From an uncultured Candidatus Saccharibacteria bacterium (GTDB lineage: Bacteria > Patescibacteriota > WWE3 > 2-01-FULL-39-13): a stretch of DNA of 64,000 bases. Both the position numbers and the translations under genes were made by a program. The notes beneath the pieces are model-generated. The model was not told where the DNA came from, searched no databases, and saw nothing but the letters and a program-made list of their open reading frames with translations. Below, one piece after another: positions 57,114 through 57,214 of the stretch (within the stretch, counting starts at the first letter, position 1; each line of letters opens with the position of its first letter). The stretch lies in contig OZ246395.1 in the NCBI GenBank assembly GCA_965230915.1, forward strand, positions 76,019-140,018. Direction: 5' to 3'.

Positions 57114-57214
57114 TTGAAGGACTTAGTTATGGCAGGCCAAAATGCCCGACCTCTAAGCGAGGAAACTATCGGGCCGTGCTATGCAAATCGCCCGTCCATG
57201 ATTAGGTCCTTCAA
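57114..57214 (+). ncRNA. ~100-nt structured RNA candidate closed by a 19-bp terminal helix
   Basis: TTGAAGGACTTAGTTATGG (57114-57132) pairs with CCATGATTAGGTCCTTCAA (57196-57214), including 3 G·U pairs. These are strand-specific, so the RNA is on the + strand. Internal hairpin GCCCGA…CCUC-UAAGC-GAGG…UCGGGC. Confidence 0.4.

Follow-up and report, generated by a model that had tools for sequence, protein, structure and literature searches.

The 64,000-nucleotide (nt) stretch of contig OZ246395.1 analysed here (the window), from an uncultured Candidatus Saccharibacteria bacterium placed in the WWE3 lineage, raises the question of what a very stable, helix-closed unit (positions 57114–57214, plus strand) is doing between two transfer RNA (tRNA) genes. 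A first-pass annotation, made from the letters of the DNA, had described it as an unclassified structured RNA. Judged by its sequence, the element is outside every described RNA family, and the answer favoured here, which has about an even chance of being right, is that it serves as a structured spacer, or 3' trailer, between the genes of an optional small tRNA operon upstream of the 23S promoter in WWE3/Katanobacteria-like bacteria of the Candidate Phyla Radiation (CPR). CPR bacteria, or Patescibacteria, have a reduced RNA-processing machinery, and almost no small RNAs have, to our knowledge, been described experimentally in them.

Fold of the element

The unit, designated element A, was delimited by sequence reading, RNAfold and a count of inverted repeats:

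57114–57214, plus strand: element A, a ~100-nt (101-nt) unit with the closing helix P1, a GGC/GCC helix and the hairpins P2 and P3

P1 is formed by 57114–57132 (TTGAAGGACTTAGTTATGG) and 57196–57214 (CCATGATTAGGTCCTTCAA), which pair over 19 consecutive base pairs (bp), 16 of them Watson-Crick and three G·U, and enclose 63 nt without recognisable identity. Inverted repeats of this length (19-mers with ≤3 mismatches) are expected 0.04 times per window, and the sole occurrence is P1 itself. In the minimum free energy (MFE) fold computed by RNAfold, the interior contains hairpin P2 (57144–57174), where GCCCGA (57144–57149) pairs with UCGGGC (57169–57174) over 6 bp and, past a 6-nt 3' bulge (AAACUA), CCUC pairs with GAGG over 4 bp to close the pentaloop UAAGC, followed by the mini-hairpin P3 (UGC-UAU-GCA, 57177–57185). 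GGC at 57135–57137 pairs with GCC at 57190–57192 as a nested 3-bp helix, a pairing not seen in L007, its closest counterpart among the relatives described below.

The plus strand of the element has an MFE of -45.6 kcal/mol (z = -6.23), and none of 200 dinucleotide shuffles folds equally well, while the minus strand folds more weakly (MFE -40.0, z = -4.1), its helix being broken by C·A in place of G·U. The terminal helix with its three G·U pairs and the inner hairpin, both read by eye in the first-pass annotation, are therefore borne out by the computed fold, and the claim of a genuine structured RNA holds against the shuffles. The pseudoknot suggested there for the GGCC and GCCC tracts is not needed, as these tracts take part in the nested GGC/GCC helix of the MFE fold. 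The further statement that the locus carries no open reading frame (ORF) does not hold strictly: an ORF of 33 codons does exist at 57129–57230, though none of the homologous elements has an equivalent.

Recurrence of the closing helix in related genomes

Relatives were taken to be contigs with homologues of the neighbouring NTP_transferase gene (76–83% identity) in which the gene order S1-5S-23S-tRNA-Ala-NTP_transferase is kept; the homologues belong to Patescibacteria, WWE3/Katanobacteria among them. At the identical site, which lies between the start of NTP_transferase and the promoter of the 23S, a cassette is present in seven genomes, while L001/L009, L004-6, L008, L011, L079 and L081 have no cassette and ~195 nt between tRNA-Ala and the gene. 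The seven cassettes are composed as follows:

Window: upstream tRNA-like with a dead anticodon arm; 19-bp helix; downstream tRNA with the 8-nt loop CUUCCAUA
L007/L097: upstream tRNA-Gln (UUG); 12-bp helix; downstream tRNA-Gly (UCC)
L082-84: upstream tRNA-Gln (UUG); 19–20-bp helix; downstream tRNA with the 8-nt loop GUUAAAUC
L085: two degenerate tRNA-likes upstream; 15-bp helix; downstream tRNA with anticodon AAA
L087: upstream tRNA-Asn, then an ochre suppressor (UUA); 14-bp helix; downstream tRNA-Arg (GCG)
L003: upstream ochre suppressor (UUA); 15-bp helix; no downstream tRNA
L095: upstream tRNA with anticodon AUA; 15-bp helix; no downstream tRNA

Across the cassettes the element measures 81–102 nt and its closing helix 12–20 bp, and every element is more stable than its shuffles (z -3.2 to -6.4). 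The helix starts 2–3 nt past the discriminator base, and the trailer begins with C-U, at all seven loci except L085, where 7 nt separate the helix from a degenerate tRNA-like. Between element types the closing helices have unrelated sequences, yet they are always uninterrupted. Conservation in relatives, which the first-pass annotation could not assess, accordingly takes the form of a helix that recurs at the same position in seven genomes with unrelated sequences. The enclosed interiors (49–68 nt) share no motif and no common fold, ranging from three-way junctions to the plain long hairpin of L003/L095; they were compared by pairwise inspection, the six element types being not alignable.

Several observations point to the RNA, and to one strand of it, as the level at which the helix is maintained. 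The non-Watson-Crick pairs in the closing helices are G·U (8 counted by script, 11 by eye), with no A·C, and a helix scan detected closing helices on the tRNA strand only. A helix of at least 12 bp starting 0–6 nt after the gene was found for 10 of 72 tRNAs, a figure slightly inflated by duplicate loci, against 1 of 360 random positions at the same loci. In L003/L095, the sole alignable pair, the element is 86% identical, as much as or more than the neighbouring coding gene (82%), and all 33 predicted pairs are kept, with one compensation from U-A to C-G and three one-sided changes; the upstream tRNA of the two is a different gene (68% identity). At the level of sequence comparison, these data show selection on the helix as RNA, on the tRNA strand, and a conserved position right behind the tRNA. 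The selection on the plus strand that had been suspected from the three G·U pairs of the window is thus found in the relatives as well, whose helices keep pairing with G·U as the sole non-Watson-Crick type.

The flanking tRNA bodies score 46–69 bits (Infernal) although several of their anticodon loops are broken. Those of L003 (271–342), L087 (967–1039), L095 (908–982) and L085 (964–1036), all on the minus strand, score 60–69 bits and comprise two unrelated ochre suppressors (UUA, in L003 and L087) and two tRNAs with A34 anticodons (AUA in L095, AAA in L085). Suppressor tRNAs are unexpected here, as the lineage is presumed to use the standard code, and the cassette as a hypervariable slot with suppressor, 8-nt-loop and dead-anticodon tRNAs is more surprising than the element itself. 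The 8-nt-loop tRNAs of the window and L082 could, from their sequences, either be +1 frameshift-type tRNAs that occur naturally or genes in decay. On Saccharibacteria-type contigs, the spacers of a Thr-Tyr-Thr tRNA array (L025 4159–4251, L029 4545–4614, L076 4393–4465) are closed helices from the first base after the tRNA, and tRNA-trailer hairpins may be a general feature of Patescibacteria.

Searches for known RNA families and related sequences

No Rfam 15 family, with GOLLD, ROOL, ribozymes and riboswitches among those covered, matched 57114–57214 at the gathering score, nor at E ≤ 10 when a 1.2-kb slice was searched, and the homologous elements of six loci matched no Rfam family at E ≤ 1, only ribosomal RNA (rRNA) and tRNA being found at these loci. 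The covariance-model search thus agrees with the first-pass annotation, which had recognised no signature of the signal recognition particle RNA, ribonuclease (RNase) P RNA, transfer-messenger RNA or 6S RNA. Its suggestion of a Y-RNA-like molecule fared badly, as Y RNA or YrlA failed on every feature tested (model match, rsr linkage, Ro-binding stem and tRNA-like domain). The YrlA model reached 15 bits (E = 6.6), mostly over the T arm of the upstream tRNA, and no TROVE/Ro (rsr) domain was found by Pfam scans of 29 ORFs of the window, which included all genes at 42294–62388. Nothing resembles the bulged helix bound by Ro, the closing helices being uninterrupted and their sequences unrelated between relatives, and no tRNA is present inside the element (Infernal; ARAGORN at a 70% threshold), where the permissive mitochondrial mode gave meaningless matches only. 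The other half of that suggestion, a processing-related RNA, is now the favoured reading, at roughly even probability and largely by analogy.

Further candidates were rejected on similar grounds. An intrinsic terminator at the element does not fit, since the helix is followed by AUUACAGAAG without a U-tract and the terminator scanner is silent there. Twister, hammerhead and other ribozymes gave no model match, the L003/L095 version being a plain long hairpin; an integron attC site is contradicted by helix ends that, as read from the sequence, lack the RYYYAAC/GTTRRRY (R''/R') boxes; and the template or repeat of a diversity-generating retroelement finds no second copy of the cassette segments in the 64-kb window.

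In viral contigs, the element core (GCCCGACCTCTAAGCGAGG) and the 23S leader pattern each gave 0 matches, while the anticodon arm with the 8-nt loop gave 7, all coincidental inside phage coding sequence and none in a tRNA. The 50,697 phage records, searched by blastn in distant mode, contained no match. The conserved 23S-leader pattern was found at 3 loci in a metagenome scan, 0 of the 3 with a cassette.

The cassette in the window

The position between two tRNAs given in the first-pass annotation is supported by tRNA-model matches at 57035–57112 (45.6 bits) and 57230–57302 (67 bits). Beyond that annotation, both flanking tRNAs prove to be non-canonical, and the element to be one module of an optional cassette, a unit of ~600 nt (56963–57580) in which an extended -10 promoter is followed by tRNA-like 1, the element, tRNA 2, two closed hairpins and a terminator. 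Its parts other than element A, with its downstream boundary, are:

56963–56990, plus strand: putative cassette promoter, read from the sequence; TTGCGT (56963–56968), 16-nt spacer and extended -10 TGC-TAAAAT (56982–56990), i.e. TGCTAAAAT
57035–57113, plus strand: tRNA-like gene 1; acceptor, D and T arms intact, anticodon arm replaced (Infernal, 45.6 bits; ARAGORN)
57215–57229, plus strand: linker and 5' leader of tRNA 2; 15 nt, unpaired in the fold of 57114–57229
57230–57303, plus strand: tRNA 2; well-formed cloverleaf with the 8-nt anticodon loop CUUCCAUA (UCC/Gly-like plus one base; Infernal, 67 bits)
57305–57355, plus strand: second closed trailer hairpin; 51 nt, starting 1 nt past tRNA 2, with the 9-bp closing helix GGGUUUUCA/UGAAGACCU
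57357–57446, plus strand: third helix-closed element, B1; 90 nt, CCGGUU/AACCGG and UUCCUCAUACGA/UCGUAUGAGGAA closing ~54 nt
57498–57580, plus strand: cassette terminator T; 16-bp closing helix, inner stem, apical CAACAC/GUGUUG, hexaloop AAUGAC and U-run
57643–57672, plus strand: promoter of the tRNA-Ala/23S/5S operon (TTGCAA-17-TATAAT); downstream boundary, outside the cassette

The promoter nonamer (TGCTAAAAT) is also present ~100 nt upstream of tRNA-Ile (at 52441) and before the L007/L097 and L095 cassettes; the cassette promoter is absent from the output of the consensus scanner because its -35 box is weak. From this arrangement we infer co-transcription of the cassette and use of this promoter. 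The anticodon arm of tRNA-like 1 consists of an extended stem (GG/CC plus CUGUACA/UGUACAG, 2 + 7 bp) capped by a GGG triloop, so that there are 21 nt where the Infernal model expects 15, and ARAGORN calls an odd 79-nt 'Val'; with its anticodon arm replaced by a triloop stem, this module is therefore probably unable to decode. In tRNA 2, reported by ARAGORN as 'tRNA-??? (tcca)', Infernal shows one extra loop nucleotide, while the L007 counterpart has the normal loop UUUCCAG of a tRNA-Gly (UCC). The linkers of the other cassettes measure 3–21 nt.

Downstream of tRNA 2, the region 57304–57450 folds with an MFE of -59.2 (z = -7.1), and the helix scan finds a perfect 12-bp helix in B1 (57365–57376/57431–57442). 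Both hairpins (57305–57355 and 57357–57446) are without Rfam match and have analogues in L007 (1194–1277) and L082 (135–258). Terminator T (MFE -37.4, z = -7.6), of which the scanner flags the apical stem only (57522–57541) as terminator-like, is homologous in L087, L082, L085 and L007, with compensatory change in 10 of 21 pairs. The corresponding sites are 57498–57580 in the window, 670–746 in L087, 24–93 in L082, 834–930 in L085 and 1070–1148 in L007; the apical stem covaries and the hexaloop is kept (AAUGAC, AACGAC, AACGAU, AAUGGC or AAAGGC), which goes beyond the needs of a simple terminator. The promoter of the 23S operon and the leader that follows it are conserved in relatives both with and without the cassette.

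Genomic setting and comparable processing stems

The window, part of a 945-kb contig, has a low guanine-plus-cytosine content (~37%) and the ordinary housekeeping genes of a cellular genome. The rRNA operon is in pieces: 16S (40482–41924) is followed by genes for two giant surface proteins, then by tRNA-Ile (52548), four genes, the divergent NTP_transferase (56020–56922, minus strand), the cassette region, tRNA-Ala (57867), 23S (58100–60986), 5S and the S1 protein gene. The surface proteins between 16S and tRNA-Ile (1395 and 1950 amino acids) contain LVIVD repeats and Peptidase_S74 chaperone domains, and FkbM methyltransferase, DHH, GidB and NTP_transferase genes separate tRNA-Ile from tRNA-Ala-23S-5S (rRNA region 40482–61202). 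The 16S gene is short, with 1443 nt against a model of 1533 positions. In a relative (locus D3nQsMZy), an ORF for a LAGLIDADG homing endonuclease lies between tRNA-Ile/16S and the GidB block, a sign that mobile DNA, or an intron of the rRNA, may be present nearby.

Three other RNAs of the window are enclosed by long helices. The 23S is flanked by a 25-bp stem (58025–58049/61000–61024) and the 16S by a 15-bp stem, while tRNA-Ile (52548–52624, with encoded CCA) is enclosed by a 19–21-bp leader-trailer stem stacked on its acceptor arm (52529–52642), an arrangement unusual for a bacterial tRNA that suggests RNase III-dependent maturation. Given these comparable stems, the 19-bp helix of the element is taken to be the same kind of object: it offers about two turns of near-perfect double-stranded RNA (dsRNA), in which the G·U pairs are the only irregularities. 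The stems around tRNA-Ile in the relatives L085 and L087 have 22 and 13 bp, respectively. Elsewhere in the window, an AT-rich, near-perfect hairpin of 17 bp (32674–32740, minus strand) lies directly upstream of tRNA-Pro (32595–32670, minus strand).

The favoured reading and its alternatives

Same-strand tRNA-model matches on both sides, a promoter-like site upstream and a terminator hairpin downstream embed the element in a tRNA operon, and the lack of conservation of its interior sequence argues for a structural or processing role rather than a sequence-specific trans-acting one. In the scheme proposed, transcription of the cassette would start at an extended -10 promoter of its own and stop at the terminator, a long hairpin with a U-run. 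Because acceptor, T and D arms are retained in the tRNA-like modules, cleavage by RNase Z and RNase P at the borders of the element is proposed: RNase Z or another 3' activity would cut tRNA 1 behind its discriminator, 2 nt upstream of the helix, and RNase P at the 5' end of tRNA 2, which is the 3' end of the linker (57215–57229), so that both cuts together would, by the general rules of tRNA processing, release an RNA of ~101–116 nt. By analogy, the 19-bp helix would fold the spacer on itself and prevent mispairing with the neighbouring tRNAs, and, like the 23S and tRNA-Ile stems, its two turns of dsRNA would probably admit RNase III or hold up exonucleases. The retention of tRNA bodies despite broken anticodon loops fits a role of these modules as processing handles.

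Several observations weigh against this reading. The genes for RNase III, RNase Z and RNase P were not located within the visible 64 kb. An inner layout common to the window and L007 (6-bp stem, 6-nt 3' bulge, second stem, pentaloop and triloop hairpin) could reflect a specific fold; the slot is the same in both, yet every nucleotide differs. The window-type element is a singleton among the loci examined, and its inner helices are without covariation support of their own. A near-perfect 19-bp helix and a fairly constant length of 81–102 nt, moreover, exceed the needs of a passive spacer and therefore leave room for a function of the released RNA.

Such a function is what the best-surviving alternative proposes. 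According to it, the hairpin-closed RNA is itself the product, a stable trans-acting scaffold or decoy (Y-RNA- or vault-like) or a dsRNA ligand, and the tRNA-likes are its handles. The tRNA bodies are indeed kept while their anticodon loops decay (a triloop in the window, 14 nt in L085, 8 nt in L082 and the window), in L003/L095 the tRNA is less conserved than the element, and the element's fairly constant length and very high thermodynamic stability would suit a product. This explanation is nevertheless unlikely: the six element types have neither a conserved single-stranded motif nor a common inner fold, there is no Y-RNA/YrlA match and no Ro/TROVE or other partner gene among the scanned ORFs, and close relatives do without the cassette.

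Somewhat less probable again is a role in cis, in which the helix would act as a lock that holds the upstream suppressor or frameshift-type tRNA as an unchargeable precursor, unprocessed at its 3' end, until the stem is cut by RNase III or another nuclease, so that the supply of a potentially toxic tRNA would be conditional. The tight and conserved spacing between discriminator and helix, the presence upstream of two unrelated ochre suppressors (L003 and L087) and of an AUA anticodon (L095), and the retention of the element where the tRNA has been exchanged (L003/L095) would all be accommodated. The upstream tRNA is, however, an ordinary tRNA-Gln (UUG) in L007 and L082 and has no usable anticodon in the window, weaker trailer helices also stand behind ordinary Saccharibacteria tRNAs, and RNase Z, an endonuclease, need not be blocked by a downstream helix.

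It is doubtful that the element is the relic of a former tRNA whose leader-trailer processing stem survives around a decayed interior. The stem around tRNA-Ile (52548–52624) is of the same size (19–21 bp), and L085 has an extra degenerate tRNA-like unit beside its element, but no tRNA signal remains in the six element types (Infernal at E ≤ 10 or E ≤ 1; relaxed ARAGORN), the interiors of 49–68 nt are shorter than a tRNA, and a flawless helix with compensatory changes is not expected of a relic. Slightly more doubtful, and the most speculative of the possibilities considered, is that the whole cassette is a conditional recoding or conflict module whose rapidly exchanged, non-canonical tRNAs (ochre suppressors, frameshift-type tRNAs with 8-nt loops, A34 anticodons) are each kept as an inactive precursor by a dsRNA 'lock' beginning 2–3 nt past the discriminator; with the same small likelihood, release would be effected by RNase III or by a nuclease triggered by stress or phage, and the element would be the lock or, behind a dead tRNA, its fossil.

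That the element is a feature of the DNA, with terminal inverted repeats that only resemble an RNA helix, is very improbable, whether a recombination site or a miniature inverted-repeat transposable element (MITE) is meant. Its size of ~100 bp with 19-bp terminal inverted repeats and the presence or absence of the cassette among close relatives are MITE-like; against this, the repeat and the cassette segments have no second copy in the 64-kb window, the flanks (CCCGAC/ATTACA) form no target-site duplication, the mismatches are all G·U on the transcribed strand with no A·C, its place behind the tRNA 3' end is fixed, the scanned ORFs include neither a transposase nor an integrase and the ends carry no attC R''/R' boxes. 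That the ORF at 57129–57230 encodes a 33-residue peptide (MAGQNARPLSEETIGPCYANRPSMIRSFKLQKF) is hardly credible, for although an SD-like (Shine-Dalgarno) GAAGGA stands 7 nt upstream of the ATG, it and the start codon are both buried in the 19-bp helix, L007, L082, L087, L085, L003 and L095 lack any comparable ORF and any peptide like it, and substitutions keep pairing, not codons.

Significance of the locus

The locus is a compact, testable case of how polycistronic tRNA transcripts may be organised and matured in CPR bacteria: directly behind each cassette tRNA comes a dsRNA element closed on itself, of the same build as the RNase III stems around the genome's own rRNA and tRNA-Ile. It also presents a hypervariable slot beside the 23S promoter in which unusual tRNAs are swapped between close relatives; should these tRNAs prove functional, the slot becomes relevant to frameshifting or stop-codon readthrough in the CPR. 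Even as no more than a spacer, the element would show that helices of great stability which look 'covarying' beside tRNAs can belong to processing architecture instead of defining new families of regulatory RNA.

Comparison with known systems

Literature on tRNA oddities in CPR bacteria, tRNA-linked hairpins and CPR non-coding RNA motifs yielded nothing specific, and the phage T4 precedent discussed last was alone useful. The Correia elements of Neisseria are MITEs of ~100 bp whose terminal inverted repeats form an RNase III-sized hairpin when transcribed. Element A resembles them in length and in terminal repeats that fold as such a hairpin, but differs in being single-copy in the window, without target duplication, fixed behind a tRNA and marked by strand-specific G·U pairs. 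With Y RNAs and YrlA (RF00019 and RF02553) it has in common a length of ~100 nt and a long stem pairing its ends and closing an internal multiloop; unlike them, it has no model match, no Ro/Rsr gene nearby and no helix motif conserved among relatives.

Hairpins linked to tRNAs are known from the tRNA-microRNA units of murine gammaherpesvirus 68, where they are released by tRNase Z, and in E. coli the small RNA 3'ETS-leuZ derives from a tRNA spacer/trailer and is released by tRNA-processing enzymes. A stable hairpin or spacer directly behind a tRNA or tRNA-like module is common to both systems and to the element, which is distinguished by a bacterial host without a Dicer pathway, a length of ~100 nt, a branched interior and the absence of any target complementarity found. 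The stems flanking rRNA that are cut by RNase III are likewise long, near-perfect and tolerant of G·U pairs, and the size of the element's helix matches that of the genome's own stems around 23S (25 bp) and tRNA-Ile (19–21 bp); whereas these enclose a known functional RNA, the element encloses 63 nt not conserved between relatives.

A candidate RNase III substrate within a tRNA operon has a parallel in phage T4, whose species I RNA was reportedly found by Paddock et al. in 1976 to be cut by this enzyme in vitro. The transcript of the T4 tRNA cluster is also the precursor of the small stable species I and II RNAs, which are dispensable and of unknown function (PMC2330249). Element A departs from them in having no similarity to phage records, in its cellular CPR setting beside an rRNA operon and in flanking tRNAs that are largely non-canonical; as small non-tRNA RNAs within a tRNA operon, species I and II are its closest precedent.

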